DNA of 62,480 bases from Vicinamibacterales bacterium (GCA_050742335.1 JBOGIR010000122.1:1-62480), one strand, 5' to 3'; counted from the first letter of the stretch, positions 6,521 to 62,081 are shown. Translations and numbers: made by a program. Notes: generated from the sequence alone by a model not told the origin.

Positions 6521-7453
6521 ATGATGACTCGTCTTCTGGATTGCACGATACTGCTGGCGGCGTGCCTGGCGATCGTGATGCTGATGCCGGCGCGCCCCGC
6601 CAGCCAGGCGCTGTATCCGCGCGACGCCCCCAAGCAGCCGGGCGCGCCGAGTTGGGCGCGCGAGCGCGCGACGCTCCCTCCCTTCACCCCGCCGCGCACG
6701 CCGGAGGGGACTCCGAACCTGCAGGGACGCTGGGGCGGGCCGGCCGGAGGCGATGACATCGAAGAACACGACTACGTGGACGTGAGCTCGCCGCCCGAGG
6801 AGACCTACATCTCCGACCCGCCGGGCGGGACGATTCCGTACCAGCCGTGGGCCAAGGCGGTGCAAGCCGAGCATCGAACCGGGCTGGCGCGGGGATGGCC
6901 CGGCGAAAAGGGGCGGCTCTATCCGGACCCGCAGACGTTCTGTCTCTACAGCGTCCCGCGCGCGACGTATCGCGGCGGCTTCGAGATCGTGCAGGTCCCC
7001 GGCTACGTGATGATGCTCTACAACTTTGGCCACTACTATCGCTTCATCCCGACCGACGGGCGTCCGCACGATGTCCCCGCGCACGTCAAGCTGTGGATGG
7101 GCCATTCGCGCGGTTCGTGGCAGGGCAACACGCTCGTGGTCGACGTGACCAATCTCAATGGCAAGAACTGGCTCGACCAGGTAGGAAACTTCTTCAGCGA
7201 GAACGCCCACGTCGTCGAGCGCTTCACGCTCGCCGACGCGGACACGATCGACTACGAGACGACGATCGACGATCCAACGGTCTTTACGAGGCCGTGGACG
7301 ATCCGGTTGCCGCTGCGACGTGCCCGCGGCGGCAGCGGCGATCGCTACGCGAACGAGACCTGGGAGAACGCGTGTCACGAAGGGAACCAGGCGACCGAGC
7401 ACAATCGCACGCTCGGGTTCAAATGGTTCAGGGGGGTCACGCCCCCGAAGTGA
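6521..7453 (+). CDS. secreted protein, uncharacterised paralog family (copy D1)
   Basis: Has a signal peptide and the family motifs 'RTPEGTPNLQGRW', 'IPYQPWA', 'IPTDGRPH', 'WMGHSRGSWQGNTLVVDVTNLNGKNWLD' and 'DDPTVFTRPWT'. Confidence 0.8.
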   Translation: MMTRLLDCTILLAACLAIVMLMPARPASQALYPRDAPKQPGAPSWARERATLPPFTPPRTPEGTPNLQGRWGGPAGGDDIEEHDYVDVSSPPEETYISDPPGGTIPYQPWAKAVQAEHRTGLARGWPGEKGRLYPDPQTFCLYSVPRATYRGGFEIVQVPGYVMMLYNFGHYYRFIPTDGRPHDVPAHVKLWMGHSRGSWQGNTLVVDVTNLNGKNWLDQVGNFFSENAHVVERFTLADADTIDYETTIDDPTVFTRPWTIRLPLRRARGGSGDRYANETWENACHEGNQATEHNRTLGFKWFRGVTPPK

Positions 7454-7510
7454 GCTCGCGGAGGCACCACTGTATTCTCTCGGCGCCCTCGATGGAGAGG
7501 AGGTTATGTC

Positions 7511-8323
7511 GTGAACCGATGGTCTGATGGATGGAGGATCGCGCTGGGTACGGTGGGACTCATCGTCGCGCTGGCGCCGGCGCCGCCAGCGGCGCAGGGC
7601 GCGGCGGGGACGACCTACACGCCGCCACGGACGCGGGACGGGCATCCGGATCTGCAAGGTGTGTGGCAGGTCCTCAATGCCGCCGCGTGGAACGTTGAGG
7701 ATCATGCGGCGCGGATCGGCGTGCCTGGCGGCTACGGCGTCGTCGACGGCGGCGCGATCCCCTATCAGCCGTGGGCGCTCGCCAGGAGGCAGGAGAATTT
7801 TGCGAATCGCGCGACGCTCGATCCCGAGACGAAGTGTTACCTCCCTGGGGTCCCTCGCATTACCTACATGCCGCATCCGTTTCGCATCGTGCAGCAGGCC
7901 AACCGGGTGACGATCCTGTACGAGTACCTACACGCGGTCCGCTACGTCTTCATGAACGGCAACCCGCATCCCGAAGGACCGATCGAGTGGTGGATGGGCG
8001 ACTCACGCGGCCGCTGGGAGGGCAACACGCTCGTCGTCGACGTGATCCACCTGAGCGACAGGACCTGGCTCGATCGCGCCGGCAATTTCCACAGCGAGGC
8101 GCTGCACGTGGTCGAGCGCTACACGCCGAGCGGTCCCGATCACATCCTGTATGAGGCGACGCTCGACGATCCGAAGGTGTTCACGCGTCCCTGGACGATG
8201 AGCATGACGCTCTATCGACGCCAGGGAAAGAACGGCGACCTCATGGACTCGGAATACGACTGTTATCCCGACCTGCTGGAGCAGGAGTGGGACAAGCCGG
8301 GTTCGACCTTCTTCGCACACTGA
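7511..8323 (+). CDS. secreted protein, uncharacterised paralog family (copy D2)
   Basis: GTG start after GGAGAGGAGG. Motifs 'RTRDGHPDLQGVW', 'IPYQPWA', 'CYLPGVPR', 'WMGDSRGRWEGNTLVVDVIHLSDRTWLD' and 'DDPKVFTRPWT'. Confidence 0.8.
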   Translation: MNRWSDGWRIALGTVGLIVALAPAPPAAQGAAGTTYTPPRTRDGHPDLQGVWQVLNAAAWNVEDHAARIGVPGGYGVVDGGAIPYQPWALARRQENFANRATLDPETKCYLPGVPRITYMPHPFRIVQQANRVTILYEYLHAVRYVFMNGNPHPEGPIEWWMGDSRGRWEGNTLVVDVIHLSDRTWLDRAGNFHSEALHVVERYTPSGPDHILYEATLDDPKVFTRPWTMSMTLYRRQGKNGDLMDSEYDCYPDLLEQEWDKPGSTFFAH

Positions 8324-8342
8324 GCGGCCATCGATACCCGAA

Positions 8343-9029
8343 TCATGGGTTGCCGGGGTTCTCCTGGCCGGGCGGCGCGCCTCGCGGCGGCGCCGGGAAC
8401 GCGTGGTTGTACAGTGACTGGTAACGCACCTCCTTGCCGTTCTCGTCGAGCCACCCGAACGACTGCTGGAAGAGCGCCGGCTCCGGATACCCTGCGGGAA
8501 CGGTCCCCTCGATGACGTACAGCTTCTGATTGTGCATGTAGACCGCCGCCATCGTGCGCGATCCGTCGCGGTTCGTCAGATGCACCTGATGACCGCCAAC
8601 CCCATACGTGCTATTCCATGTCAACTGCGTCACCTTCGCGTCGCGCTCCAGGAACTTCCACGTCGCATGGAGGAGCGCACCGTGATAGTCGAGCCGCCAG
8701 TGTCCCACACCCGAGAACCCGGTGCCTCCATAGCACCCTTCGGAGCGTACCGGGCACGACTGCGCCTTCTTGGTCAGGATCTTCTCAATCTGGCTGTAGT
8801 CGACCACGGTCATCGAGTAGCGGCCCGGCCCCTGCTCGGCGCTGTAGACACGCGCCGGCAGGTCGGCGCCGTACTGCGACTGGTAGGTGGTCTGCGTCAC
8901 CTTGGGCTGGCTTGGGAAATTGCCGGTAAACCGATCTTCCCGGCTGGTAAATTCGATCCATTCCTGAGCGAGCGCAGAACCGGAAAGGGTCAGGGTGAGT
9001 GTCGCGGCGACAAGTGGAGTGAAACGCAT
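8343..9029 (-). CDS. hypothetical secreted protein
   Basis: 228 aa with a clear signal peptide (MRFTPLVAATLTLTLSGSALAQE). GC-rich third codon positions. No family recognised. Confidence 0.65.
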   Translation of the reverse strand: MRFTPLVAATLTLTLSGSALAQEWIEFTSREDRFTGNFPSQPKVTQTTYQSQYGADLPARVYSAEQGPGRYSMTVVDYSQIEKILTKKAQSCPVRSEGCYGGTGFSGVGHWRLDYHGALLHATWKFLERDAKVTQLTWNSTYGVGGHQVHLTNRDGSRTMAAVYMHNQKLYVIEGTVPAGYPEPALFQQSFGWLDENGKEVRYQSLYNHAFPAPPRGAPPGQENPGNP

Positions 9030-11833: not shown

Positions 11834-12841
11834 TTAGGGCTGCCGCGCGTAGCGGTAGCCCCCCGACACGTGAATTTCGACGACGTGGGTCGCCGGACCG
11901 TTGCCGTCGACGATGAATTGGTAGCCCAGCCCGCTTTCGAACAGCGTCTGGCTGCGTGGCACCAGCCGCTGCAGCTCGCCGCCGCCACTTGTGACGAACA
12001 ACCGGCCGTCCGAGAGCGATATCCGCGCCGTCCGCGGGTTCCCCTGATAGATCCCGCTATAAACGCCGGCGTACCGGGCCAGCACCTCAGGCGGCACGTG
12101 GACCGCCGTCTCCGTCGTGCGGGCGCTCCAGTGGTCGCTGCTGCGCTCGCACACCAACTCGAGCATCTCCGTATCGGCCGCCAGCGTCTTTTCCACCGTA
12201 TAGCTCCAGGGCTTCGCGTACGCGCCCGGATCGGTGACGGTCACTTCGATCTCCAGGTGGCCGAAGTCCCGGCGGCGGTAGCGCTCCCGCATCCGCAGCG
12301 CCTCGGTATGCGACAACCCGCGCCGGCTCACCCACGTCTTGTCGTTGAAGCCGACGCTGTCGACGACGAGCGTGTCACCGTCCCAGCGGCCCACCGAATA
12401 TCCCATCCAACTCGGAGCAGGGTTGGCTTCCAGCTCGCGACCGTCCATGAAGATCAGGCGATGGGTCAAGTCGTCGTTCAGGATGGCAATGGCGGTGGGT
12501 GTCTGGAGGACACGCTTCCAGCCCCCGAATTTCTCGGCCTCGGGCCCGTTCGGCAGACACCGGTACGCGGGACGCATCTTGAAGAACTCTTCCTGCTGCT
12601 GTCGGGCGAGGTCCCTGACCCCCGGCTTCATGTCGGTGGGGTCAGGCCGTGGCGCAGGATCTTCGCCGTTCCAGATCCCCGACAGATCCGGCTTGTCGTC
12701 GGGTCCGCGCGGCGCCGGCGCCATCAGGTTCGGCTTGCCATCGGCCGTGCGCGGGATGCCGGGCCAGGGACGATCCAGCCACTGAGCCGCCGCGGGCATC
12801 GTGCCTGCCACGAGAACAAGTGTCGCCAGAAACAGCTTCAT
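11834..12841 (-). CDS. secreted paralog-family protein with DUF3471-like C-terminal domain (array copy A1)
   Basis: The start gives 'MKLFLATLVLVAGTMPAAAQWLDRPWPGIPRTADGKPNL'. Shows 'WMGYSVGRWDGDTLVVDSVGFNDKTWV' and a C-terminal 'LARYAGVYSG...LVPRSQTLFE...QFIVDGNG'. Confidence 0.85.
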   Translation of the reverse strand: MKLFLATLVLVAGTMPAAAQWLDRPWPGIPRTADGKPNLMAPAPRGPDDKPDLSGIWNGEDPAPRPDPTDMKPGVRDLARQQQEEFFKMRPAYRCLPNGPEAEKFGGWKRVLQTPTAIAILNDDLTHRLIFMDGRELEANPAPSWMGYSVGRWDGDTLVVDSVGFNDKTWVSRRGLSHTEALRMRERYRRRDFGHLEIEVTVTDPGAYAKPWSYTVEKTLAADTEMLELVCERSSDHWSARTTETAVHVPPEVLARYAGVYSGIYQGNPRTARISLSDGRLFVTSGGGELQRLVPRSQTLFESGLGYQFIVDGNGPATHVVEIHVSGGYRYARQP

Positions 12842-12880
12842 ACGCCTCTCCGATTGTGTCGCCGTGTCGGTTAACAGGCT

Positions 12881-12997
12881 ATGGTGAAACTCACCAAGGC
12901 GCCACGGAGACACAGAGACACGGAGTCTTTTCCAGATGTTTTCTCTGTGCCTCTGTGCCTCTGTGCCTCTGTGGCCCTGCCGGGACTTGTGCCACGG
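12881..12997. repeat. CACAGAGG-type hairpin element (full copy, inverted orientation)
   Basis: Arms are GCGCCACGGAGACACAGAGACACGGAG and CTCTGTGCCTCTGTGCCTCTGTGCCTCTGTGGCCC around a T-rich loop. Fills the gap between A2 and A1. Confidence 0.85.
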
Positions 12998-13001
12998 GTT
13001 G

Positions 13002-14038
13002 TTAACGCTCCCGTGCGTACCGATAGGGGCCCGAGATGTGAACCTCCACGAGGGCGGTCGCGGCACCCGTACCGTCGACGATGAATTGATAGCCGAGTCC
13101 CAGCCCTTCGAACAGCGTCTGCGATTGCGGCACCAGCGGCCGCATCTCGCCGCCGTCGACGGCGGCGGAGCCGATCACTCTGGCGATCAGCTGGCCGCCT
13201 GAGAGCGAGACTTCGACGGTCCGCGGGCGTACCCCGTAGAACCCGCGGTAGACGCCAACGTACCGTGCCAACACGTCGGACGGAACGGTCACCGCCCTGC
13301 CTGCGGCATCCGAGAGGCTGCCGGCCCAGTGATCGCTGCTGCGTTCGCAGACGGCCTCGAGCATCTCTGTGTCGGGGGCCAGCGCCATGTTCGCCGTGAA
13401 TCCCCAGGGCTTCACGTACGCACTCGGATCGGTGTACGTGACCTCGATCTGCAGGTGGCCGACGTCCGTGCGGCGGTATCGCTCCGTCACCCGCAGCGCC
13501 TCCGTGTGCGCCTGCCCGTAGCGGCTCAGCCACGTCTTGTCGTTGAAGCCGTTGCTCTCGACGACGAGCGTGTCGCCCTCCCAGCGGCCCACGGAGTACC
13601 CATCCAGCTCGGCGCGGGCTCGGCCTCGAGCGCGCGGCCGTCCATGTGGATCAGGCGGTAGGTGAGGTCATCGCTCAGGATCGCGACGGCGGCCGGCGTC
13701 TGGAGGATGCGCTTCCATCCGCTGAATTCGTCAGCCTCGGGACCGCTCGGCCGGCACTGAAACGAGGGACGCCCTCTGTGGTACTCGCGTTGACGCTGAC
13801 GGACGAGGTCGTTGACCCACGGCTTCGCGTTGGCGGGGTCGAGGGGGGCCTCGGGATTCGGCCCGTTCCATATCCCCGTCAAGTCAGGCCTGCCGTCGGG
13901 CCCGCGCGGCGCCGGCGCCGTCAGGTTCGGCTTGCCGTCGGCCGTGCGCGGAATGCCTGACCAGGGGCGATCCAGCCATTGGGCCGCCGCCGGTATCGTG
14001 CAGGCCGCGAACATGATCGCCATGAGCAACAGCCTCAT
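13002..14038 (-). pseudogene. array copy A2, interrupted by a 1-nt deletion (two track ORFs 13002..13592 and 13526..14071)
   Basis: The N-terminal ORF ends its homology at '...APSWMG' and the C-terminal ORF resumes at 'GRWEGDTLVVESNGFNDKTWL'. At 13596-13605 the plus strand reads GTACCCATCC where paralogs read GTACCCCATCC. Confidence 0.75.
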
Positions 14039-14050
14039 AGGCCCCCTCCA

Positions 14051-14094
14051 ATTCGTGATTTGAAGCCGCAAATCATAAATCGCAAATCACGAAT
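14051..14094. repeat. hairpin ATTCGTGATTTG...CAAATCACGAAT built from AAATCNCN-type tandem units
   Basis: 12-bp perfect inverted repeat inside a low-GC tandem tract (aaatcataaatcgcaaatcacgaatcacaaatcgc). Lies between A3 and A2. Confidence 0.75.
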
Positions 14095-14117
14095 CACAAA
14101 TCGCATGATTCATCAGG

Positions 14118-15155
14118 TCACCGCTGCCGAGAAAACCGCCAAGGGCCTGATATGTGAATCTCGTCGACGCCGGTCGCGACGCCTTTGTCGTCGACGATGA
14201 ATCGATAGCCGAGTCCCAATCCATCGAACAGCGTCTCGGATTGCGGTACCAGCGGTCGAGACTCGTCGCCAGCGATGGTGCCGCCGACGACGATCTTGGC
14301 GATCAATTGGCTGCCAGAGAGCGATACTTCCACGGAGCGCCAGGTTTGCCCCCAAAAGCCATTGTAGACACCGACGTACCGCGCCAGCACGTCGGGCGCC
14401 ACGGTCACCGCCGAGTTGGCGGCATCCGAGACACTGCCGGGCCAGTGCTCGCTGCTGCGTTCGCAGACCGCCTCGAGCATCTCCGTGTCGGGCATCAGCG
14501 TCATGTTCGCCGTGATTCCCCACGGCTTCACGTACGCACCCGGATCGGTAAACGTGACGTCGATCTGCAGGTGGCCGAAGTCAGTACGCCGGAAGCGCTC
14601 CGTCACGCGCAGCGCCTCCGTGTGCGCCCGTCCGTCGGCGCTCAGCCACGTCTTGTCGTTGTAGCCGTTGCTCTCCACGACCAGCGTGTCGCCGTCCCAG
14701 CGACCCACGGAGTACCCCATCCAGCTCGGCGCGGGGTCGGCCTCCAGCACGCGGCCGTCCAGGTGGATCACACGGTGGGTGAGGTTGTCGTTCAGGATCG
14801 CCAGGGCGGCCGGTGTCTGGAGGATGCGCTTCCACCCGGCCCACCTGTCGGCCTCAGGTCCGCTCGGCCGGCACTGGAAGGACGGGCGCGCCCTGAAGTA
14901 GTCCCGGTGATGCCGTTGGACAAGGTCGTTGACCCACGGTTGTGCGTTGGCGGCGTCGTAGGCGGGGCGGGGAACCGGTCCGTTCCATATCCCCGTCAAG
15001 TCAGGCTTGCCGTCGGGTCCGCGCGGCGCCGGCGCCATCAGGTTCGGCTTGCCATCGGCCGTGCGCGGGATGCCGGCCCAGGGGCGATCCAGCCATTGGG
15101 CCGCCGCCGGCATCGTTCCGGCCGCGAGGATGAGCGCCGTGAGAAACAGCCTCAT
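14118..15155 (-). CDS. secreted paralog-family protein with DUF3471-like C-terminal domain (array copy A3)
   Basis: Shows 'MRLFLTALILAAGTMPAAAQWLDRPWAGIPRTADGKPNL', 'WMGYSVGRWDGDTLVVESNGYNDKTWL' and C-terminal 'LARYVGVYNG...LVPQSETLFD'. Confidence 0.9.
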   Translation of the reverse strand: MRLFLTALILAAGTMPAAAQWLDRPWAGIPRTADGKPNLMAPAPRGPDGKPDLTGIWNGPVPRPAYDAANAQPWVNDLVQRHHRDYFRARPSFQCRPSGPEADRWAGWKRILQTPAALAILNDNLTHRVIHLDGRVLEADPAPSWMGYSVGRWDGDTLVVESNGYNDKTWLSADGRAHTEALRVTERFRRTDFGHLQIDVTFTDPGAYVKPWGITANMTLMPDTEMLEAVCERSSEHWPGSVSDAANSAVTVAPDVLARYVGVYNGFWGQTWRSVEVSLSGSQLIAKIVVGGTIAGDESRPLVPQSETLFDGLGLGYRFIVDDKGVATGVDEIHISGPWRFSRQR

Positions 15156-15192
15156 AGCCCCTCCGTTTCTGCCTACTTGGTCCGTCTAACCA

Positions 15193-15236
15193 CCTTCGCC
15201 AAGGCTACGGTGGTCCGCCGTAGCTTTAGCGAAGGC
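15193..15236. terminator. imperfect 17-bp hairpin between A4 and A3
   Basis: CTTCGCCAAGGCTACGG-tggtccg-CCGTAGCTTTAGCGAAG, about 20 nt after the A4 stop on the coding strand. Confidence 0.45.
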
Positions 15237-15255
15237 GGAGCCGGACGCTACGTAC

Positions 15256-16299
15256 TCAACGCTGCCGCGCGAAGCGGTACGGTCCCGTGATGTTGATCTG
15301 CACGACGTCCGTCGCGATGCCTTTGTCGTCGACGATGAACTCGTAGTACAGGCCCGCGCCCTCGAAGAGCCTCTCCGACTGCGGCACCAGCGGCCGGATT
15401 TCGCCGCCGTCGACAAGGGCGCCGCCGATCACCCTGGCGATCAACTGGCCGCCCGAGAGCGTCACTTCGACGGTGCGCGCTCTCGACAGGTAGTTCCCGC
15501 TGTAGACGCCGACGTACCGCGCCAGCACCTCAGGAGGCACGGTCACCGCCCGGCTCGCGGCTTCCGAACGCGTGCCGGTCCAGTGATCGCTGCTGCGCTC
15601 GCAGATGGCTTCGAGCACTTCCGTGTCGGGCGCGAGCGCCATGTTCGCCGTGAATCCCCACGGCTTCGCGTAGGCACGCGGATCGGTGTACGTCACCTGG
15701 ATCTGCAGGTGGCCGAAGTCGGTGCGCCGATAGCGCTCGGTCACGCGCAGCGCTTCGGTGTGCGCCTGCCCGTAGCGGCTCAGCCACGTCTTGTCGTTGT
15801 AGCCGTTGCTCTCCACGACGAGCGTGTCGCCCTCCCAGCGGCCCACGGCGTACCCCATCCAGCTCGGCGCGGGCTCGGCTTCGAGCGCGCGGCCGTCCAT
15901 GTGGATCGTGCGATAGGTCTGATCGTCGTTCAGGATCGCGATGGCCGCCGGCGTCTGGAGGATGCGCTTCCACCCGGCAAACCGGTCGGACTCGGGCCCG
16001 CTCGGCAGACACTGGTACGACGGACGGTCCTTGTGGTAGTCGCGCTGCCGCTGGAGGACGAGGTCATGGACCCACGGCAGCTCGATGGTTGGGTCGGGAA
16101 GCGACTCGGGATTCGGCCCGTTCCACACGCCGGTGAGATCCGGCTTGCCGTCGGGTCCGCGCGGCGCGGGCGCGGTGAGGTTCGGTTTTCCATCAGTCGT
16201 GCGGGGAATGCCCGGCCAGGGACGATCCAGCCATTGGGCCGCCGCGGGCGTCGTGCCCACGACGAGGGCGAGCGCGGCGAGACACAACCTCATACACAC
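15256..16299 (-). CDS. secreted paralog-family protein with DUF3471-like C-terminal domain (array copy A4)
   Basis: Shows 'MRLCLAALALVVGTTPAAAQWLDRPWPGIPRTTDGKPNL' and 'WMGYAVGRWEGDTLVVESNGYNDKTWL'. The start may be 16293 instead. Confidence 0.9.
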   Translation of the reverse strand: MCMRLCLAALALVVGTTPAAAQWLDRPWPGIPRTTDGKPNLTAPAPRGPDGKPDLTGVWNGPNPESLPDPTIELPWVHDLVLQRQRDYHKDRPSYQCLPSGPESDRFAGWKRILQTPAAIAILNDDQTYRTIHMDGRALEAEPAPSWMGYAVGRWEGDTLVVESNGYNDKTWLSRYGQAHTEALRVTERYRRTDFGHLQIQVTYTDPRAYAKPWGFTANMALAPDTEVLEAICERSSDHWTGTRSEAASRAVTVPPEVLARYVGVYSGNYLSRARTVEVTLSGGQLIARVIGGALVDGGEIRPLVPQSERLFEGAGLYYEFIVDDKGIATDVVQINITGPYRFARQR

Positions 16300-16308
16300 C
16301 TTTCGACG

Positions 16309-17334
16309 CTACTTCTTGCGTGCGAACCGGAATGAGCCCGATATGTGAATCTCCACGAGCTCGGTCGCGGTTCCGCTATCGTCGACGACGAATTGATAGC
16401 CCAGCCCGATCCCTTCGAACAGCGTCTGCGTTTCCGGCACGAGCGGCCGTATCTCGCCTCCGTCGAGGAACGCAAAGCCAATGACCCTGGCGATCAACTG
16501 ACCGCCTGACAGCGACACTTCGATAGTACGGGGGCGTGTCCCATAGGCCCCGACATAGGTGCCGACATACCGGGCCAGCACCTCGGGTGGGACGGCCACC
16601 GGCGTGTCCAAACGGACCGACCAGTGGTCGGTGCCGCGCTCGCAGACGGATTCGAGCATCTCCGTATCGGCCGCCAGCGTCTTCTCCACCGTGAAGCCCC
16701 ACGGCCGCGCGTACGCACCCGGATCGCTGAAGGTGACTTCGATCTGCAGGTGGCCGAAGTCCGTGCGGCGGTAGCGCTCCGTCGCGCGCAGCGCCTCGGT
16801 ATGCGCCAGCCCTTCGGGGGTCAGCCAGGTCTTGTCGTTGAACCCGTTGCTCTCCACGACGAGCGTGTCGCCCTCCCAGCGCCCGACGGAGTAGCCCTGC
16901 CAGCTTGGCGCGGGATCGGCCTCCAGCTCACGGCCGTCCATGTGGATCACGCGATACGTGAGGTCATCGTCCAGGATGACGAGAGTGGCAGGCGTCTGCA
17001 GGATGCGCTTCCACCCGCCGAATTCGTCAGCCTCGAGCCCGCTCGGCCGGCACTGAAAGGAGGGACGCCCCCGATGGTAGTCCTGGTCACGTTGACGCAC
17101 GAGGTCGTTGACCCACGGCTGCGCGTTGGCCGGGTCGAGGAGGGGATCGGGAGTCGGCCCGTTCCAGATCCCCGTCAAATCGGGCTTGCCGTCGGGACCG
17201 CGCGGCGCGGGCGCGGTCAGGTTCGACTTCCCATCAGCCGTGCGCGGAATGCCCGCCCACGGACGATCCAGCCACTGGGCCGCGGCGGGGGTCGTGACCG
17301 CGACGAGCGCGAGTGCCGTGAGAAACAGCTTCAC
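16309..17334 (-). CDS. secreted paralog-family protein with DUF3471-like C-terminal domain (array copy A5)
   Basis: Shows 'MKLFLTALALVAVTTPAAAQWLDRPWAGIPRTADGKSNL' and 'WQGYSVGRWEGDTLVVESNGFNDKTWL'. Lies 9 nt upstream of A4. Confidence 0.9.
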   Translation of the reverse strand: MKLFLTALALVAVTTPAAAQWLDRPWAGIPRTADGKSNLTAPAPRGPDGKPDLTGIWNGPTPDPLLDPANAQPWVNDLVRQRDQDYHRGRPSFQCRPSGLEADEFGGWKRILQTPATLVILDDDLTYRVIHMDGRELEADPAPSWQGYSVGRWEGDTLVVESNGFNDKTWLTPEGLAHTEALRATERYRRTDFGHLQIEVTFSDPGAYARPWGFTVEKTLAADTEMLESVCERGTDHWSVRLDTPVAVPPEVLARYVGTYVGAYGTRPRTIEVSLSGGQLIARVIGFAFLDGGEIRPLVPETQTLFEGIGLGYQFVVDDSGTATELVEIHISGSFRFARKK

Positions 17335-17338
17335 ACCG

Positions 17339-18397
17339 TCACTTCACGCGCGCGTATCTGTAGGGACCGGAGATGTGAATCACGATGAGGGCCGTTGCCG
17401 GGCCCTTGTCGCCGACCTCGAACTGATAGCCGAGCCCCAGGCCTTCGAACACCGTCTGGGAAATCGGCACCAGCGGCCGCGGCGTGCCGTCCTCGAGGCC
17501 GGCGGCGCCGAGGCCCCCCTCGATGGCCGGGCCGACGATCGTGGCAACCAGCTCGTTGCCGGAGAGCGACACTTCGTACGTCCGCTCGCGTCCGCCATAG
17601 ATCCCTTTGTAGACGCCGACGTACCGGGCGAGCTGGTCGCGCGGCACGCTCACCCTCGCGCTAGCGGCATCCGAGAGGCTGCCCCAGTGCTCGCTGCTGC
17701 GTTCGCAGACCGCCTCGAGCATTTCCGTATCGGCGGTGAGCCTCATGGTCGCCTTGAAGCCCCACGGCTTCGTGTACGCGCGCGGGTCGGTGTAGGTGAC
17801 CTCCACCTGGAGACTGCCGAAGTTGGTACGCCGGTAGCGTTCGGTGATCCGCAGCGCATCCGAATGCGAGACCCCGTAGCGGCTCGTCCACACCTTCTCG
17901 TTGTATCCGTTGCTCTCCACGACGAGCGTGTCGCCTTCCCAGCGGCCCACCGAGTACCCGGTCCAGCTTGGCGCGGGCTCGGCTTCGAGCGTGCGGCCGT
18001 CCATGTGGATCACGCGATATGTCAGGTCGTCGTTCAGGAAGGCGATGACGGTCGGCGTCTGGAGGACGCGCTTCCAGCCGCCATACCGCTCCGCCTCGGG
18101 TCCGCTCGGCCGGCACTGGTAATAGGGACGCGAGCGGTGGTACTCCTGCTGATGCTTGCGGGCGAGATCCAGGACCCACGGCTGCAGGTCGGAGGGCTCC
18201 GGACGGCCGAGGATCTGTCCGGCGTTCCATATCCCCGTCAAATCCGGCTTGCCGTCGGGCCCGCGCGGCGCGGGCGCCGCCAGGTTCGGCTTGCCGTCGG
18301 GAGTCCGCGGGATGGCCGGCCATGGACGATCCAGCCATTGGGCCGCCGCGGGCATCGTGCCCGCGATCAGAACGAGTGCCGCGAGAAAGAGCGTCAT
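17339..18397 (-). CDS. secreted paralog-family protein with DUF3471-like C-terminal domain (array copy A6)
   Basis: The start gives 'MTLFLAALVLIAGTMPAAAQWLDRPWPAIPRTPDGKPNL'. Shows 'WTGYSVGRWEGDTLVVESNGYNEKVWT'. Lies 4 nt upstream of A5. Confidence 0.85.
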   Translation of the reverse strand: MTLFLAALVLIAGTMPAAAQWLDRPWPAIPRTPDGKPNLAAPAPRGPDGKPDLTGIWNAGQILGRPEPSDLQPWVLDLARKHQQEYHRSRPYYQCRPSGPEAERYGGWKRVLQTPTVIAFLNDDLTYRVIHMDGRTLEAEPAPSWTGYSVGRWEGDTLVVESNGYNEKVWTSRYGVSHSDALRITERYRRTNFGSLQVEVTYTDPRAYTKPWGFKATMRLTADTEMLEAVCERSSEHWGSLSDAASARVSVPRDQLARYVGVYKGIYGGRERTYEVSLSGNELVATIVGPAIEGGLGAAGLEDGTPRPLVPISQTVFEGLGLGYQFEVGDKGPATALIVIHISGPYRYARVK

Positions 18398-18481
18398 ATC
18401 CGTCCTCCAGCGTTGGGCGGGATCGTAACACGCCGGCACGGCGGCGGATGCTTGCTTGGATCCTTTCTTCGCGGCCTCGTG

Positions 18482-18574: not shown

Positions 18575-18603
18575 GGCGGCCCTTGGCCTTCTTATTATGT
18601 CAA

Positions 18604-18645: not shown

Positions 18646-18656
18646 GCCGATCGAGC

Positions 18657-22818: not shown

Positions 22819-22846
22819 CGTCACACACGGAGAACAGGAACTGACT

Positions 22847-27983: not shown

Positions 27984-28004
27984 ATCGGCAGCACACCGAC
28001 ACGA

Positions 28005-29142: not shown

Positions 29143-30048
29143 ATGGGAGTTCCGACAATGCCACATCCTGGTTGGGTTGTAATGGCCGTCCTTTTCGTTG
29201 CAACGCTGGGCCTCCCCGCTGAGACACTCGCCCAGGCGAATGCTTCGGGTGGCTGGTTGGTTCCGGAGTGGAACAAACCGCCGGTCACGGATGCGAACAG
29301 GAAGCCGGCGCCGCGGCGCAGCCTGGCCGGCACGTGGGGGCCGGCAGCGGGAGCGGGCGCAGGGACCCAGGCAAGTGGTGTGCAGTTGAAGCCGAACAAC
29401 GGCAGGCCGGAAAATCAACTTCCGTATACTCCCTACGGCCTGGAGCTGTACAAGTCCCACAAGGCGCTCGAGGGGATCGACGCGGTGCTGCCTTCCCAGG
29501 ACAACGATCCCAGAAATCGCTGCGAGCCGTTGGGAATGCCGCGCTACAACCACTACAACGTCAGGCTCACGCAGTTCTTTCAAGACGAGCACAAGATTGT
29601 GATCCTGTATCACTACGACAACCGCTGGCGCGTCATCTGGACCGACGGTCGCCAGCTTCCCACCTTGGTGGATGGCGGCGTCGCCATCGCCGGTGAAATC
29701 CGGGAGCCGCGGTTCTTCGGCTACTCGGTGGGCCGGTGGATAGACGACTACACGTTCCAGGTCCAGACGGTAGGCGCGATGCCGGAAGACCGCGTGTGGC
29801 TCGATTCGACGGGCCGGCCCATCAGCGACCAGGTCCGCGTCACCGAGACATTTCAGCGCGTGGACTATGACACGCTGGTGTGGTCGGAAACGATCGACGA
29901 TCCGAAGGTGTATGCCAGGCCGTGGGAGACCTTGAAACTCCCGATGCGCTTGCACGATCCCCGTACCGACATCCAGGAGTACTACTGCTCACCGGCCGAG
30001 CAGGAGAACTACAACAAGCTGTTCGGCAACACGGCGAGCGGCAAGTAG
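29143..30048 (+). CDS. secreted protein, uncharacterised paralog family (divergent copy B1)
   Basis: Shows 'LPYTPYG', 'RCEPLGMPR', 'WTDGRQL', 'FFGYSVGRWIDDYTFQVQTVG', 'RVWLDSTGRPISDQVRVTETFQR' and 'DDPKVYARPWE'. Confidence 0.8.
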   Translation: MGVPTMPHPGWVVMAVLFVATLGLPAETLAQANASGGWLVPEWNKPPVTDANRKPAPRRSLAGTWGPAAGAGAGTQASGVQLKPNNGRPENQLPYTPYGLELYKSHKALEGIDAVLPSQDNDPRNRCEPLGMPRYNHYNVRLTQFFQDEHKIVILYHYDNRWRVIWTDGRQLPTLVDGGVAIAGEIREPRFFGYSVGRWIDDYTFQVQTVGAMPEDRVWLDSTGRPISDQVRVTETFQRVDYDTLVWSETIDDPKVYARPWETLKLPMRLHDPRTDIQEYYCSPAEQENYNKLFGNTASGK

Positions 30049-30147: not shown

Positions 30148-30552
30148 ATGAGAAATCGGCCGGTCGTCGTGTTGGCTCTCGCCGTCGGGCTGCTGATGCC
30201 ATGGCCCCTGCTCGCGCACCACGGCAGCGCGGCGTTTGACACCGGGAAAAAGGTGACGCTGAAAGGGACTGTGAAGGAATGGGTGTACTCCAATCCCCAC
30301 TGTCTGCTGAGACTGGACGTCACAGGCGAGGACGGCCAGGTGGTGCCGTGGGTTGCGGAGGGTCAGGCTCCGAATGTCATCTTTCCCGCCGGCTACCGCA
30401 AGGATTCGTTCAAGGCTGGAGACCAAGTGACAGTCATTGTGGAGCCCGTCAAGAATGGTCGGCCCTTGGGGCGCATCCTCCAGTCCGTGCTCGCCGATGG
30501 CAAAGTCCTGGGCGTTGCGTCATCTGCCGGGACAGCACCACCGCAGCCATAA
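30148..30552 (+). CDS. small secreted protein, DUF6152-like, mature N-terminus His-His
   Basis: The signal peptide ends '...PWPLLA|HHGSAAFD'. Shows 'VTLKGTVKEWVYSNPHCLLRLDV'. A paralog sits at 58161. Confidence 0.8.
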   Translation: MRNRPVVVLALAVGLLMPWPLLAHHGSAAFDTGKKVTLKGTVKEWVYSNPHCLLRLDVTGEDGQVVPWVAEGQAPNVIFPAGYRKDSFKAGDQVTVIVEPVKNGRPLGRILQSVLADGKVLGVASSAGTAPPQP

Positions 30553-30591: not shown

Positions 30592-31446
30592 ATGAAGAAG
30601 GTGCCGTACCTGTTCGCCGCGCTGCTGGCGCTGGCGCTCGCGCCTGCAGCGGAGTCGCAGCAGGTCGGCGGCGCCGCGCCCGGGCCCGCGGCCGGCGAGG
30701 TGCCGTTCATCTTTCTGCCCAGTCCGACGATCCCCGACGCAGACGCCGCGCGTCAGCCGATTCCGCGGCTGCCCGATGGCACCGTGGATCTCACCGGCCC
30801 CTGGGTGGGCGGCGGCTCCAACGTCGACATCGAGCTCGAGGGTGGATTGAAGCCTGGAGATCTGCCACTCCTCCCCTGGGCGAGCGAGGTCAGGGCCAGG
30901 CGAAACAAGGCAGAGGAACCCTACACGGCGTGCCTGCCGATGGGGGTCCCGCGTGTCAACCCGTACCCGTGGAAATTCGCGATGTCCTACACCGCGAAGG
31001 GACTGTCGCATATCTACGTGCTGCACGAGACCGGCGACGCGGGCGCGCATCGCGTCGTCTACATGGACGGCCGCACGCATCCTGCGGACCCGATCCCGAC
31101 GTGGTGGGGGCACTCGATCGGCCGGTGGGACGACGACACGCTCGTCGTCGACACCGTGGGCTACAACGACAAGTTCTGGTTCGACAGCCGCGGCACGCCG
31201 CACACCGAGCAACTGCACACGGTGGAGCGGTATACGCGCATCAACTGGGGACGACTGCGCCACGTGTTCCGCCTGGACGACCCGGGCGCGTTCTCGAGAC
31301 CGGTGACGTTGAACTTCGTGGCGCGGCTGCTGCGCCCGGACCTGAAGACGGGCGGCGGCGAGCTGATGGAGTTCATCTGCCTCGAGGACAATCAGTACGG
31401 CTCCGCGGCGGGGCTGAGGCCGGGCACCGGGACCAGCCTCAAGTAG
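30592..31446 (+). CDS. secreted protein, uncharacterised paralog family (copy B2)
   Basis: Shows 'LPDGTVDLTGPW', 'ACLPMGVPR', 'YMDGRTH', 'WWGHSIGRWDDDTLVVDTVGYNDKFWFD' and 'PHTEQLHTVERYTR'. Lies 39 nt after the DUF6152-like gene. Confidence 0.85.
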   Translation: MKKVPYLFAALLALALAPAAESQQVGGAAPGPAAGEVPFIFLPSPTIPDADAARQPIPRLPDGTVDLTGPWVGGGSNVDIELEGGLKPGDLPLLPWASEVRARRNKAEEPYTACLPMGVPRVNPYPWKFAMSYTAKGLSHIYVLHETGDAGAHRVVYMDGRTHPADPIPTWWGHSIGRWDDDTLVVDTVGYNDKFWFDSRGTPHTEQLHTVERYTRINWGRLRHVFRLDDPGAFSRPVTLNFVARLLRPDLKTGGGELMEFICLEDNQYGSAAGLRPGTGTSLK

Positions 31447-55015: not shown

Positions 55016-55090
55016 GGGCCACAGAGTCACAGAGACACGGAGGTCAACAAAAAAAGGATCTCCTTCGTGTCTCCGTGTCTCCGTGGCGCG
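55016..55090. repeat. CACAGAG-type hairpin element (full copy)
   Basis: GGGCCACAGAGTCACAGAGACACGGAGG-tcaacaaaaaaaggat-CTCCTTCGTGTCTCCGTGTCTCCGTGGCGCG. Confidence 0.85.
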
Positions 55091-55681: not shown

Positions 55682-55708
55682 GGGCCACAGAGGCACAGAG
55701 AAAACATC
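55682..55708. repeat. half-copy (left arm only) of the CACAGAGG hairpin element
   Basis: GGGCCACAGAGGCACAGAGAAAACATC with no right arm. Confidence 0.6.
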
Positions 55709-56735: not shown

Positions 56736-56829
56736 CTTAGTCTTTAGTCTCTAGTCTCTGGTCTTTGGTGGTGCTCCGTCAGGTTCAAACCAAAGACCAA
56801 AGACGAAAGACCAAAGACCAAAGACGAAC
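56736..56829. repeat. hairpin element built from GGTCTNT/CAAAGAC 7-mers
   Basis: CTTAGTCTTTAGTCTCTAGTCTCTGGTCTTTGGT ... AAACCAAAGACCAAAGACGAAAGACCAAAGACCAAAGACGAAC. Confidence 0.85.
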
Positions 56830-56846
56830 GAGGCCGCGAAGCCCTT

Positions 56847-57570: not shown

Positions 57571-57672
57571 GTGGCACAAGTCCCGGCCGGGCCACAGAGG
57601 CACAGAGGCACAGAGAAACATCTAAAGAAAAACTCTGTGTCTGTGTCTCTCCGTGGCGCTTTGCTGACTTTC
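57571..57672. repeat. CACAGAGG-type hairpin element (full copy with long flank)
   Basis: GTGGCACAAGTCCCGGCCGGGCCACAGAGGCACAGAGGCACAGAG-aaacatctaaagaaaaa-CTCTGTGTCTGTGTCTCTCCGTGGCGC. The flank matches the reverse complement of the 12881 copy. Confidence 0.85.
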
Positions 57673-58160: not shown

Positions 58161-58571
58161 ATGATGGTGCGACGGGGAGGGCGTGTGGGACGACCCGCAG
58201 GCATGGGCACGGGCCAAGGCTGGCTGCTGGTGGCACTCTTATTCACCGTTGTCGTTGCGCCGGCCGCGGCGCATCATTCACACTCCATGTTCGACACCAG
58301 CCGGGAAGTACCGATCACGGGGACGGTGACGGACTATTCCTACAGGAATCCGCACGTGTTCCTCTACCTCGACGTCAAAGGCGAGGACGGTCAGGTCGCG
58401 TCGTGGGCCGTCGAGATGTCGAACATTACGAACATGCAGCGGCGCGGCATCCATCGCTCGACGTTCAAGGCGGGCGACATCGTGATGGTGAGGGTCAACC
58501 CGCTGAAGGACGGGCGGCCCGGCGGGAACTACACCTCGGTGACGGCGGCCGACGGCAAGACCTACGAGTGA
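58161..58571 (+). CDS. small secreted protein, DUF6152-like, mature N-terminus His-His
   Basis: Shows '...VVVAPAAA|HHSHSMFD' and 'ITGTVTDYSYRNPHVFLYLDV'. Paralog of the 30148 gene. The start is ambiguous (58119, 58161 or 58203). Confidence 0.8.
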   Translation: MMVRRGGRVGRPAGMGTGQGWLLVALLFTVVVAPAAAHHSHSMFDTSREVPITGTVTDYSYRNPHVFLYLDVKGEDGQVASWAVEMSNITNMQRRGIHRSTFKAGDIVMVRVNPLKDGRPGGNYTSVTAADGKTYE

Positions 58572-59838: not shown

Positions 59839-59858
59839 TTCCCTGACATGCAGCCTGC

Positions 59859-60986
59859 ATGACCCTGACTCCGGGAACGCAGCTCGGACCGTATGAAGTC
59901 GTCGGCGCTCTCGGCGCCGGCGGCATGGGAGAGGTATATCGTGCCCGCGACACGAAGCTGCAGCGGGACGTCGCGCTGAAGGTCCTCCCCGAGAAGTTCG
60001 CCCTCGATCCTGCGCGCCTCGCGCGATTCAGGCGCGAGGCGCAGATCCTCGCCTCGCTCAACCATCCGAACATCGCCGCCATCTATGGACTCGAGGAACA
60101 GCCAGTCGTAGTGTCCGGCTTCCCGCCTCCGCCGAAGGCTCCGGCGAGGCTCGCCGAAGCGCGCGTCGCGCGCGAAGGCGGCAGCCGGACGGTTTGTGCA
60201 CTCGTGCTCGAGTTGGTCGAAGGTCCGACGCTGGCCGACCGCATCACGCAGGGCCCGATCCCGCTCGAAGCGGCGCTGCCGGTCGCCCGCCAGATCGTGG
60301 AGGCGCTCGCCGCCGCCCACGAGAAGGGGGTGATTCATCGCGACCTCAAGCCCGCCAACATCAAGGTGCGCGACGATGGCACGGTCAAGGTGCTCGACTT
60401 TGGTCTGGCGAAGCTGACCGAGCCGGCGGGAACCGACGAAGCGGCCGCCACGCACCTACCGACGATCACGAGCCCGGCGGTGGTGACGGGCGCGGGTGCG
60501 TTGCTCGGCACCGCGGCGTACATGGCGCCCGAGCAGGCAAGAGGGTCTGTGGCCGATCGGCGTGCCGATCTGTGGGCGTTCGGGGTGGTCGTCTGGGAGA
60601 TGCTCACCGGCCGCCGATTGTTCGAGGGCGCCACCGTGTCCGACACGCTTGCCTCTGTGCTGAAGACGGATCCGGATTGGAGCGCTCTGCCGGTGGATAC
60701 ACCGTCGGCCCTCCGGCGGCTCCTGCGGAGGTGCCTGGAAAAAGATCGCAATAGGCGGCTCGATTCTGCGGCAGATGCGAGGATCGAAATCGACGATGCA
60801 GCGAGCCGCGAGTTGGCCGGTGCCGATCCGTCGCAACCGTTTCCGCACCGCCCACGGATCGCCTGGATGTCGGCGCTCGCGCTTGTCATGGTCGTGGGGA
60901 CGGCACTCACCCTGAGTCCCGCGGCGCGCGGAATGCGGATTTCAGAGTGGTCGATGGCAGATCGTTGTCGAGTGACGATTTCATGA
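59859..60986 (+). CDS. Ser/Thr protein kinase, kinase domain + TM only (apparently truncated; 3' end runs into repeat R2)
   Basis: Shows 'LGAGGMGEVYRA', 'HRDLKPANI', 'DFGLAK' and 'YMAPEQ'. One TM segment (MSALALVMVVGTALTL). The last ~18 codons are encoded by R2. Confidence 0.8.
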   Translation: MTLTPGTQLGPYEVVGALGAGGMGEVYRARDTKLQRDVALKVLPEKFALDPARLARFRREAQILASLNHPNIAAIYGLEEQPVVVSGFPPPPKAPARLAEARVAREGGSRTVCALVLELVEGPTLADRITQGPIPLEAALPVARQIVEALAAAHEKGVIHRDLKPANIKVRDDGTVKVLDFGLAKLTEPAGTDEAAATHLPTITSPAVVTGAGALLGTAAYMAPEQARGSVADRRADLWAFGVVVWEMLTGRRLFEGATVSDTLASVLKTDPDWSALPVDTPSALRRLLRRCLEKDRNRRLDSAADARIEIDDAASRELAGADPSQPFPHRPRIAWMSALALVMVVGTALTLSPAARGMRISEWSMADRCRVTIS

Positions 60987-61109
60987 TTGTCGAACTGAGG
61001 TTCGATTGACTGCGAATTCCCTCAATCGCCAATCAGTTCGAACGATCGTCATTCGGAACTCGTCAACAGTCGTCAATCGATCAATCTGAAATCAGCAATG
61101 AGCCGCCGG
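60934..61109. mobile_element. ~175-bp low-GC palindromic MITE-like element, copy R2
   Basis: Same orientation and same 54-bp core as R1. Confidence 0.75.
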
Positions 61110-61139
61110 ATGATAGTAGACTCCCCTTCAGAAGGAGAC

Positions 61140-62081
61140 GTGACCGTGCGCAACCAGTTCTCCGGATGGATCATCCCGCTGGCGCTCGTTGCGGGGCTCA
61201 TGTCGCTGCCGCAGGTACCAGTCGCCGCCCAGCGCCCGTATTACGTGACGCCCCCGCCGGGCTCGGGCCCGACCCCGATGGCGCCGTACGGGCAGTCGGG
61301 CGGCTGTTCCGAGGACCCCGCGATCTTCCACAAGTGCGCGCTGGATGCGGCAAAGGCCTTTTCCCCGCCGCGCACGCCCGACGGCCGGCCCAACTTCCAG
61401 GGTTTCTGGAACCGTATCGTCGCCCGCAACGCGGAAAACGTCGAGGAGCATCCCCAGGGGATGGACGGGTCGGGCGGAAAGACCCTGATCGTCGATCCCC
61501 CGAACGGCCGGATTCCGTACCAGGCATGGGCCGCGGCGAAGGTGGAGACGCACTTCGCGACCTACTGGAATCCGGTCCAGCAGTGCATGCCGGACTCGCC
61601 GCCGAGGCAGGCGTACACCGCCGGCAGCTTTCAGATCGTGCAGACGCCCGGCAACGTGTTCTTCATGACGGAACAACTCCGCACCTACCGCGCGATCCCG
61701 ACCGACGGGCGGCCGCATCTCCCCGCATCCATTCGCCTCCACATGGGCGACTCGCGGGGCCGCTGGGAGGGAGACACACTCGTCGTCGACGTGACGAACC
61801 TGAAGGACCGGGTGTGGCTCGACCACGTAGGCAACTTCTACAGCGAGTCGGTCCACATCGTCGAACGCTGGACGATGTTTCATCAGGACGTCATCCACTA
61901 TCAGGCGACCATTGACGATCCGAAGGTCTACACGCGCCCCTGGACGATGATGTTGGGATGGCGGCGCAACACCCAGCCGGGATTCGAGACGTTCGAGAGC
62001 GCGTGCTGGGAAGGCGTGCAGGGCGGCCAGGAGCGGCTCCAGAACGAGCTCAAGATCTACACGGGCGCGTTCTCCAAGTGA
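61140..62081 (+). CDS. secreted protein, uncharacterised paralog family (copy C2)
   Basis: Shows 'RTPDGRPNFQGFW', 'IPYQAWA', 'QCMPDSPPR', 'IPTDGRPH', 'HMGDSRGRWEGDTLVVDVTNLKDRVWLD' and 'DDPKVYTRPWT'. I placed the start at GTG 61140 (or 61146) after GAAGGAGA; the track ATG at 61098 lies inside repeat R2. Confidence 0.8.
   Translation: MTVRNQFSGWIIPLALVAGLMSLPQVPVAAQRPYYVTPPPGSGPTPMAPYGQSGGCSEDPAIFHKCALDAAKAFSPPRTPDGRPNFQGFWNRIVARNAENVEEHPQGMDGSGGKTLIVDPPNGRIPYQAWAAAKVETHFATYWNPVQQCMPDSPPRQAYTAGSFQIVQTPGNVFFMTEQLRTYRAIPTDGRPHLPASIRLHMGDSRGRWEGDTLVVDVTNLKDRVWLDHVGNFYSESVHIVERWTMFHQDVIHYQATIDDPKVYTRPWTMMLGWRRNTQPGFETFESACWEGVQGGQERLQNELKIYTGAFSK

Follow-up and report, generated by a model that had tools for sequence, protein, structure and literature searches.

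A very large family of predicted exported calycin-like barrel proteins, partnered by DUF6152, occurs twelve times on a Vicinamibacterales contig

The G-x-W signature at the first strand of a beta-barrel is the structurally conserved region 1 (SCR1) motif of lipocalins, and barrels of lipocalin size typically hold small ligands. ZinT/YodA is a periplasmic calycin-like zinc protein with a histidine-rich N-terminus. Copper histidine braces, found in lytic polysaccharide monooxygenases (LPMO), CopC and YcnI, are characterised by an N-terminal histidine that is exposed when the signal peptide is removed and serves as a metal ligand. Sulfur-starvation genes are regulated by the sigma-54 activator SfnR in studies cited in PMC13352529 (Endoh et al. 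2003 and 2005). Here we examine a stretch of 62,480 nt from a Vicinamibacterales bacterium (GCA_050742335.1, JBOGIR010000122.1:1-62480; hereafter the window), for which an original prediction had proposed that one uncharacterised secreted protein family occurs twelve times. We describe the family as a new and very large group of predicted exported, calycin-like barrels whose conserved partner is DUF6152.

A profile hidden Markov model (HMM) was built from 11 of the copies and compared with all stop-to-stop open reading frames (ORFs) in the six frames of the window. Exactly 12 loci matched and no further ones, confirming that a single family is present twelve times. All 12 predicted ORFs were recovered, with coordinates that were exact or within a few codons. 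E-values of the intact copies ranged from 7e-117 to 2e-81, whilst the two pieces of the broken copy A2 scored 1e-55 and 1e-53. The start of C2 is ambiguous, with candidates at ATG 61098, GTG 61140 and ATG 61166. The copies, together with two DUF6152 genes that the original prediction had overlooked, are as follows.

D1: 6521..7453, plus strand; D1-type, 310 aa, first in the D1-D2 pair, hydrophobic N-terminus; HMM E-value 4.5e-100
D2: 7511..8323, plus strand; D2-type, 270 aa, 57 nt 3' of D1; HMM E-value 2.2e-89
A1: 11834..12841, minus strand; A-type, with the core and a C-terminal DUF3471-like domain, last of the six-gene array; HMM E-value 1.4e-115
A2: 13002..14071, minus strand; A-type, broken by a 1-nt deletion at ~13598/13599, giving two HMM pieces in different frames
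A3: 14118..15155, minus strand; A-type, 345 aa, the copy chosen for modelling; HMM E-value 7e-117
A4: 15256..16293, minus strand; A-type; HMM E-value 2e-116
A5: 16309..17334, minus strand; A-type; HMM E-value 7.7e-115
A6: 17339..18397, minus strand; A-type, first in the array; HMM E-value 2.8e-116
B1: 29143..30048, plus strand; divergent member, first of the B1-DUF6152-B2 unit; HMM E-value 2e-81
E1: 30148..30552, plus strand; DUF6152 gene encoding 134 aa, flanked by B1 and B2; DUF6152 HMM E-value 1.6e-36
B2: 30592..31446, plus strand; family member following DUF6152; HMM E-value 2.6e-88
E2: 58161..58571, plus strand; DUF6152 gene directly 5' of C1, start codon approximate; PF19649 E-value 5.3e-28
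C1: 58581..59657, plus strand; most divergent member, 10 nt after DUF6152; HMM E-value 7.4e-84
C2: 61098..62081, plus strand; D1-type, lacking an adjacent D2-type partner; HMM E-value 6e-103

Amino-acid identity across the 12 copies ranges from 20 to 72%. The six A copies are the closest to one another, at 63-72% in protein (A1 is 63-67% identical to the other five) and 77-83% in DNA. D1, D2 and C2 share 42-45%, with D1 at 44% to D2 and 45% to C2; B1 and B2 show approximately 30-37% identity to the others and C1 only 20-26%. The cluster of proteins at 90% identity that contains B2 has 134 members. At the N-terminus of each copy, a few charged residues are followed by a hydrophobic segment, whose mean Kyte-Doolittle value over 10 residues is 2.3-3.3, and by small-x-small sites. 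By this crude heuristic on N-terminal composition all 12 have signal-peptide-like N-termini, in line with the secretion originally proposed. The 12 ORFs are paralogues of one family and, on the heuristic's prediction, are exported by the Sec pathway. The 'LAAC' of D1, within its hydrophobic region, is an ambiguous lipoprotein signal; proteobacterial orthologues lack a lipobox.

We then compared the core domain, which is about 230 aa long, with described families. In Pfam-A (2025) and NCBIfam (2026) the core gave no match at E<=1 with the eight window copies scanned. When 131 diverse members were scanned singly, only DUF3471, which covers a C-terminal domain, and scattered chance matches were obtained, with no consistent family for the core. 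An hmmsearch of PDB sequences returned as its best match (E 1.4) a 30-residue stretch of integrin-linked kinase. With no match to the core in any of the three, the description of the family as uncharacterised stands, and no confident match to a functionally characterised family emerged.

A word-indexed search yielded at least 3,120 homologous proteins, all 'hypothetical' and without Pfam domains; the window proteins are likewise labelled 'hypothetical protein' by NCBI, from a Vicinamibacterales metagenome-assembled genome. An exhaustive HMMER scan of 1.84 billion representatives, counted as clusters at 50% identity, gave 22,599 clusters at E<=1e-3, 12,666 at E<=1e-10 and 2,688 at E<=1e-30. A single peptide pattern applied to one genome per GTDB species confirmed more than 588 loci. 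These were mainly from Vicinamibacterales, Bryobacterales and Terriglobia, and also from Rhodospirillaceae, Rariloculaceae, other Gammaproteobacteria and the cultured species Duganella fentianensis. A-type homologues alone number more than 7,700 at E<=1e-20 amongst metagenome proteins, mostly 345 aa long and 70-90% identical. The original prediction had likened the copies in the window to a lineage-specific expansion. This does not hold for a family of some 22,600 clusters that spans Acidobacteriota and Alpha-, Beta- and Gammaproteobacteria. Carrying several copies is also normal: in 68 of the 80 loci that we fetched, at least two lie within about 17 kb, with a maximum of eight.

The tight array of A copies raises the question of whether the window was correctly assembled. 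Window positions 12768-22847 align to a second public assembly, GCA_975306755.1 (locus L001), at 99.95% identity with one gap in approximately 10 kb, and five array members are reproduced there in unchanged order. In the window, A2 reads GGTAC where GGCTAC (GGC TAC) is expected, indicating a single missing base at ~13598/13599. Because A2 is an intact gene of 345 aa in the near-identical L001, the frameshift must be either an error in sequencing or a mutation that arose very recently. Mis-assembled or duplicated repeats might leave such a frameshift, and the L001 contig ends inside the array, a sign that the region is hard to assemble. However, the copies differ from each other by 17-23% in DNA and 28-80% in protein, and five of them recur in identical order in the independent assembly. 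Comparable arrays are also present in further genomes, with up to eight members in 17 kb. One of these, L090, has four A-type genes separated by 28-nt spacers, with DUF6152 and multihaem cytochrome genes ~4-8 kb upstream on the same strand. Identities of 20-72% mark the copies as paralogues and not assembly duplicates, and we consider an artefact, which the original prediction had named as a possible objection, hardly credible.

The diversifying pressure suggested for these paralogues was examined in the six A copies. Pairwise dN/dS by the Nei-Gojobori method was 0.25-0.46. The highest values in 30-codon segments were 0.68-0.75, at residues ~61-90 and 286-315 (loop of the DUF3471-like domain), and no segment exceeded 1. 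The A copies are thus under purifying selection with relaxed segments, and at this resolution there is no evidence of diversifying selection. A fast-evolving, lineage-expanded family of polymorphic exported proteins with a surface, defence or interaction role would agree with the many diverged copies on one contig and with the two most variable A segments. Against it stand the low gene-wide ratios, the 70-96% identity of orthologues across proteobacterial genera, the 70-90% identity of A-type homologues in thousands of metagenome proteins, and the presence of the family in several phyla. Pfam scans of the window genes and of recurrent neighbours tied no toxin, immunity or mobile-element context to family genes. 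We regard this explanation as very improbable.

To describe the fold, A3 was modelled with AlphaFold2 from a 131-sequence alignment. The model has a mean predicted local distance difference test (pLDDT) of 91.9 and a predicted template modelling score (pTM) of 0.85, and supersedes an earlier D2 model made from a shallow alignment (pLDDT 71). It begins with an extended N-terminal arm, followed by a short strand at residues 55-58 with the invariant G-x-W. A helical insertion (73-94) carrying Cys95 comes next, then eight antiparallel strands between 109 and 220, bringing the total to nine. Beyond Cys231 lie short helices and a second all-beta domain (262-343). The sole recurrent high-probability Foldseek matches were calycins (fatty-acid-binding protein, FABP; cellular retinol-binding protein, CRBP; SAHS; NanoLuc; nitrophorin), at probabilities of 0.9-1.0. 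These matches are weak, with E-values of 5e-3 to 6e-2 and template modelling (TM) scores of 0.45-0.58 when target-normalised and 0.2-0.3 on the query. The top match of the A3 model, D-aminopeptidase 1ei5, is attributed to its DUF3471-like part. Barrels resembling LolA/LolB or TbpB/fHbp were set aside, with Foldseek probabilities of only 0.08-0.38 and TM below 0.25. On the model, the core appears to be a calycin-like (lipocalin/FABP-type) antiparallel beta-barrel, a statement about fold class that carries no family assignment.

Conservation is concentrated in a few positions of this barrel. In D1 numbering, the columns invariant among the window copies are G69, W71, C141, R174, G194, G198, W200, W217, E233, D251, P252, P258 and C285, and the motifs listed in the original prediction coincide with conserved alignment columns. 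Across 293 non-redundant domains, conservation in the same numbering is 100% for G69, 99% for R174, 98% for both W200 and C141, 96% for both E233 and D251, 94% for both R234 and W71, 92% for S196, 90% for C285 and 86% for Q158. G69 and W71 fall in the first predicted strand, where lipocalins carry their G-x-W. The near-universal Arg/Glu-Arg/Asp/Gln/Ser/Trp set amongst these suggests that members recognise a common polar or anionic group, or share a common chemistry, and do not have diversified pockets.

Both cysteines are present in 569 of 607 domains; 30 domains keep only the first, one only the second, and seven neither, against ~0.5 double losses expected under independent loss. Because the two are lost together, the pair fits a disulfide, as the original prediction had supposed, probably linking the helical insertion to the C-terminal end of the domain. 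Outside the core, DUF3471 (PF11954) matches 26 of the 131 diverse members, with a best E-value of 8e-9. Residues 250-331 of A4 reach E 1.3e-3 and 19.6 bits, below the Pfam cut-off of 29.3. We tentatively assign the C-terminal ~90 residues of A-type copies to DUF3471 from this similarity, the window copies lying below that cut-off.

The gene neighbourhood was studied by all-against-all clustering of neighbouring ORFs in 79 loci. DUF6152 (PF19649) was the sole tightly linked neighbour family, occurring at 52 of the 79 loci by HMM and at 44 by BLAST clustering. Of 77 DUF6152 genes, 69 are on the same strand as a family gene and at most 300 bp from it, either upstream or downstream. In the window, E2 scores 97.4 bits against PF19649 (cut-off 27), and E1 matches a DUF6152 HMM built from the loci, a representative of which scores 114.6 bits in Pfam. 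DUF6152 is a separate protein that is not homologous to the 12 ORFs and is itself uncharacterised; a profile search against PDB sequences gave no relative. From the strand and helix pattern of its alignment it looks OB-like.

Mature DUF6152 is about 110 aa long. In 14 of 14 aligned sequences a His-His pair directly follows the predicted AxA cleavage site, as in the translations of E1 (...PLLA/HHGSAAFD...NPH...) and E2 (...PAAA/HHSHSMFD...NPH...). H24, H25, D31, N49-P50-H51, W68 and E71 are invariant in the alignment. Because an N-terminal histidine is typical of histidine-brace sites, we predict a metal site here: the mature His-His, the histidine of NPH, the Asp and the Glu look like its ligands.

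The barrel proteins themselves also occur in pairs. The dominant arrangement is a D2-type gene followed by a D1/C2-type gene, with a gap of -50 to +150 nt. The best 120 database matches are Bryobacteraceae proteins of ~520 aa, in which a D2-like domain is fused to a D1-like domain in the same order. Window D2 is ~48% identical to the N-terminal domain of these fused proteins. In the window the pair stands in reversed order, D1 before D2, which also occurs at other loci. Since the two types are conserved neighbours and are fused in some lineages, they most likely form a heterodimer.

Other neighbours are more loosely associated. PQQ (pyrroloquinoline quinone) dehydrogenases are found within 8 kb at 12 of the 79 loci (two operonic), NHL propellers and TonB-dependent receptors at 11 each, metallo-beta-lactamase-fold (MBL) hydrolases at 10 and DUF6644 at eight, the last four families being operonic at four loci each. 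The original prediction had placed the copies among secreted hydrolases, a TonB-dependent receptor and kinases. MBL hydrolases and TonB-dependent receptors do recur in this loose manner, but kinases are not conserved partners. In the window, the stretch MBL - B1 - DUF6152 - B2 - MFS - NHL is partly conserved: the arrangement of B1, DUF6152 and a further member recurs in L026 and L054, and MBL genes recur beside B-type modules in other genomes. The MBL-fold protein 5' of B1 (27751-29052) is closest to the NCBIfam model 'quinoprotein relay system zinc metallohydrolase 2' (SoxH-related), at 127 bits and under the cut-off of 280. Separately, EgtB-like (DinB_2 plus FGE-sulfatase) and EgtD-like (histidine-specific methyltransferase) ergothioneine genes occupy 3955-6263, directly 5' of D1-D2 and after an MFS transporter; their link to sulfur compounds may be coincidence.

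A context that speaks to physiology was found in Proteobacteria. Orthologues of the Duganella D2-type protein, 70-96% identical, occur in Pseudoduganella, Massilia, Methylotenera, Methylophilaceae, Methylobacter, Rhodocyclales and Steroidobacteraceae. The operon DUF6152 - D2-type - D1-type is common to six loci (L059, L084 and L086-L089). Its surroundings include TonB-dependent receptors (5 of the 6 loci), TonB-ExbB-ExbD, an SBP_bac_11 binding protein, a YghX/dienelactone-hydrolase-like protein, cytochrome c', cytochrome b561, two DUF6644 membrane proteins, and HbpS-like and rhodanese-like proteins. PepSY_TM, DsbD, a peroxiredoxin and a sigma-54 enhancer-binding protein without a receiver domain are also encoded there. 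These loci further encode a CsoR-like repressor, a thioredoxin-like protein with DsbD, and DUF2214-like membrane proteins. Its substrate-binding proteins score 529-559 bits on the NF008022 sulfate-binding-protein model (cut-off 288). Molybdate binding, considered on the basis of SBP_bac_11 and TOBE, was ruled out, as these proteins are clearly Sbp-type sulfate binders.

Sigma-54 promoters (TGGCAC-N5-TTGC, -24/-12) precede the operon at 4 of the 4 loci with an upstream intergenic region. Inverted repeats CTGCTGC...GCAGCAG were seen 5' of these promoters (L059 6309-6640, L086 8086-8580 and L088 8782-9010), and may be candidate sites for the adjacent enhancer-binding protein.

The proteins of this island are almost devoid of sulfur amino acids. 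In 120 D2-type orthologues, Met makes up 0.07% and Cys 0.12% of the sequence beyond residue 30, and 90 of the 120 lack both; other family groups have ~2.1% Met and ~0.9% Cys. Met and Cys are absent altogether from the island Sbp, TonB, DUF6152 and DUF6644 proteins. Of four TonB-dependent receptors, the three with lengths of 854-935 aa contain 1 Met and no Cys, and the remaining one (L086, 754 aa) contains 2 Met and 4 Cys. The cytochrome c' keeps just the cysteines of its CxxCH, and the rhodanese-like protein lacks Cys after residue 30. In unrelated flanking genes, Met+Cys amounts to 2-7.6%. The nearly Met- and Cys-free island was observed in L084 and L086-L089, extending for example over 1128-12908 in L087.

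Such elemental sparing is reportedly an established mark of proteins that cells produce abundantly when starved of sulfur. Sbp-type binders, sigma-54 promoters and Met/Cys depletion thus tie the island to sulfur limitation, and, judged from sequence, the composition of the proteobacterial module is that expected of a sulfur-starvation response. In this clade the D1-type protein keeps exactly two conserved cysteines whilst the D2-type has lost both; retention under sulfur sparing indicates that the pair is functionally important in D1-type proteins. Two of the island's TonB-dependent receptors showed only generic plug-domain similarity to solved receptors. To our knowledge, a dedicated sulfur-spared TonB system with its receptor has not been described, and a literature search on sulfur sparing with TonB found nothing specific. 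Literature on DUF2214 consisted of generic DUF surveys, silent on DUF6152 and the barrel module.

The sulfur link describes one clade of the module and not the whole family. A search of the window for sigma-54 promoters gave three one-mismatch matches against 4.2 expected by chance, none of them upstream of a family gene. As far as gene content and composition can tell, the sulfur-spared clade shows the kind of job that the module does, namely exported, TonB-associated scavenging induced by nutrient limitation.

Our preferred though tentative reading, to which we give slightly less than an even chance, is that the barrel family and DUF6152 form a periplasmic module for the capture or processing of scarce nutrients. 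The 'PDLxGxW' strand would open the calycin-like barrel, and the disulfide would anchor the helical insertion to the end of the domain on its C-terminal side. D2-type and D1-type proteins would operate as a heterodimer in the periplasm, together with DUF6152. After passage of the outer membrane, a small, probably anionic or polar-headed molecule would be bound by the barrel pair through the conserved Arg/Glu-Arg/Asp/Gln/Ser/Trp set. DUF6152 would supply a metal or redox centre and either process the molecule or hand it on. In the sulfur-spared clade the module would serve sulfur scavenging under sulfate limitation, its product feeding Sbp. On the simplest view, the 12 copies of the Vicinamibacterales contig would be diversified versions of the module for other scarce substrates. 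By analogy, the disulfide, the heterodimer, metal binding, and ligand binding or catalysis may be transferred to the window copies. A more specific version is conceivable but doubtful: DUF6152 and the D2/D1 pair would constitute an unrecognised periplasmic system, possibly a His-His metalloenzyme with a calycin-like, substrate-holding heterodimer. It would scavenge behind a TonB-dependent receptor, taking sulfur compounds in the sulfur-spared clade and other substrates in the case of the acidobacterial paralogues.

Several observations weigh against a capture module. The window copies contain 1.2-4.2% Met+Cys, the same as their neighbours, and are not sulfur-depleted; other acidobacterial and most other proteobacterial members also have normal sulfur content. 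DUF6152 is not adjacent to eight of the 12 copies in the window. The sampled loci were chosen with a D1-centred peptide pattern, which biases the frequencies of subfamilies and architectures given above. Foldseek searches of PDB with the D2 and A3 models gave no match at E<1e-3, so that 'calycin-like' denotes a fold class only. No relevant papers were found in the literature on DUF6152, PF19649, DUF6644 and PF20349. Among the 293 non-redundant domains the barrel has no conserved His or Met, and any metal chemistry would therefore rest on DUF6152. Lastly, the PQQ dehydrogenases, IorAB-like enzymes with molybdenum cofactor (Moco), cytochromes and a cytochrome c fusion seen in or near family genes suggest redox partners, and not uptake.

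These redox neighbours lead to a different explanation, in which the barrel proteins are accessory or redox subunits that dock with or shuttle for periplasmic PQQ/Moco oxidoreductases and c-type cytochromes, with DUF6152 as a small metal redox centre. In L091 an A-type gene lies 27 nt upstream of Fer2_2 and MoCoBD, and in L082 a fused gene is divergent from Fer2 and MoCoBD; two PQQ dehydrogenases also lie near the fused protein P0012. In P0185, a metagenome protein of 330 aa and the sole redox-domain fusion among 270 proteins inspected, a D2-type domain is fused with a cytochrome domain of c type, whose CxxCH lies at residue 36. The cytochrome c' and cytochrome b561 genes inside the sulfur-spared island, and the quinoprotein-relay resemblance of the MBL upstream of B1, point the same way. 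However, just 2 of the 12 PQQ neighbours are operonic, and the majority of family genes lack an oxidoreductase nearby. The genomes are rich in PQQ dehydrogenases, cytochromes and MBLs, and the neighbour counts are raw figures. The barrel, moreover, has no conserved ligand for a redox cofactor. We judge this explanation unlikely.

Slightly less likely still, in our assessment, is that the module works in the periplasm as a metallochaperone or in the acquisition of a metal, be it copper, zinc, iron or a rare one. DUF6152 would then contribute a histidine-brace-like site and the barrels would be ZinT-type binders of a metal or metallophore serving the TonB-dependent receptor. The invariant N-terminal His-His, NPH, Asp and Glu of DUF6152 would suit such a role. 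So would the receptors at 5 of the 6 proteobacterial loci with their TonB-ExbBD, PepSY_TM, CsoR-like repressor, DsbD and thioredoxin-like, and DUF6644/DUF2214-like proteins. Yet the composition of the island and its sbp gene indicate sulfur limitation, not metal limitation, and we found no context of the Fur, Zur or CueR type. Apart from the Cys pair, which is itself dispensable in D2-type proteins, the barrel lacks conserved His, Met or Cys as metal ligands. Nor do the receptors closely resemble a metal or siderophore receptor of solved structure. Uptake of lanthanides or PQQ, considered in view of methylotroph hosts and the PQQ-dehydrogenase neighbours, was set aside for want of specific evidence. 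Capture or processing of scarce nutrients remains our preferred reading.

That a domain of some 22,600 clusters is absent from Pfam, NCBIfam and PDB leaves a considerable gap in how soil metagenomes are annotated, and Vicinamibacterales and Bryobacterales, dominant soil bacteria, carry several copies per genome. To the description of the family we add a confident fold model, its subfamilies (D1-, D2-, A-, B- and C1-type), the DUF6152 partner and a fusion that predicts the heterodimer. Were the proposed scavenging system true, it would rank among the largest unnamed exported families of soil bacteria and bring a new component to sulfur starvation. Its confirmation would provide a new periplasmic step in sulfur scavenging and a function for two DUF-level families at once. 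The cultured Betaproteobacteria that carry the island (Duganella, Pseudoduganella, Massilia and Methylotenera) make this function experimentally approachable.

The window has further features besides these genes. Hairpins of tandem 8-mers, (CACAGAGG)n facing their reverse complement, lie at 12903-12973, 33147-33206, 39168-39190, 55020-55042, 55686-55700 and 57593-57615. The 8-mer has 16 matches against 0.16 expected, and one hairpin falls between A2 and A1 and another between the MFS and NHL genes. These hairpins look like REP-like (repetitive extragenic palindromic) elements or terminators typical of Acidobacteriota, and give rise to spurious 'TEAQRHRGTE...' ORFs. A second type, with tandem 7-mers (TCTTTGG)n and their complement, is present at 30060-30114 and 56755-56831 (11 matches against 0.02 expected), one of them exactly between B1 and the DUF6152 gene. 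At 22848-22921 there is a 74-bp palindromic insert (GGACCGCTATACGG...CCGTATAGCGGTCC) that is absent from the 99.95%-identical L001. From its sequence we class it as an indel between two near-identical strains, resembling a miniature inverted-repeat transposable element (MITE). Two predicted proteins, at 8343-9029 (minus strand; 228 aa, with a signal peptide) and 49209-50822 (plus strand; 537 aa), had no Pfam or NCBIfam match, and Rfam and tRNA scans of the window gave none either.

How, then, does the family compare with described systems? It resembles calycins in its predicted up-and-down antiparallel barrel of ~110 residues, in the G-x-W of its first strand and in its predicted export. It differs from them in having no sequence similarity to the lipocalin and lipocalin-like families of Pfam, in the 50-residue helical insertion with a conserved Cys that separates the first strand from the remaining ones, in its long N-terminal 'PRTxDGxPDL' arm, and in its hetero-pairs or fusions. 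DUF3471 is known as the C-terminal beta domain of some proteins of the beta-lactamase/D-aminopeptidase type, whereas here a DUF3471-like domain is joined to the new barrel and not to a serine hydrolase. ZinT/YodA and histidine-brace proteins gave no match in sequence or fold; in addition, the His-His motif resides on a separate small protein and the context indicates sulfur, not zinc or copper. In promoters and composition there is a likeness to sulfate-starvation proteins (Sbp/CysP, SfnR-controlled): the proteobacterial operon stands beside sbp, has sigma-54 promoters and an adjacent enhancer-binding protein, and is nearly free of Met and Cys. DUF6152 and the D2- and D1-type proteins are nevertheless unlike any known sulfatase, sulfonatase or sulfur carrier.

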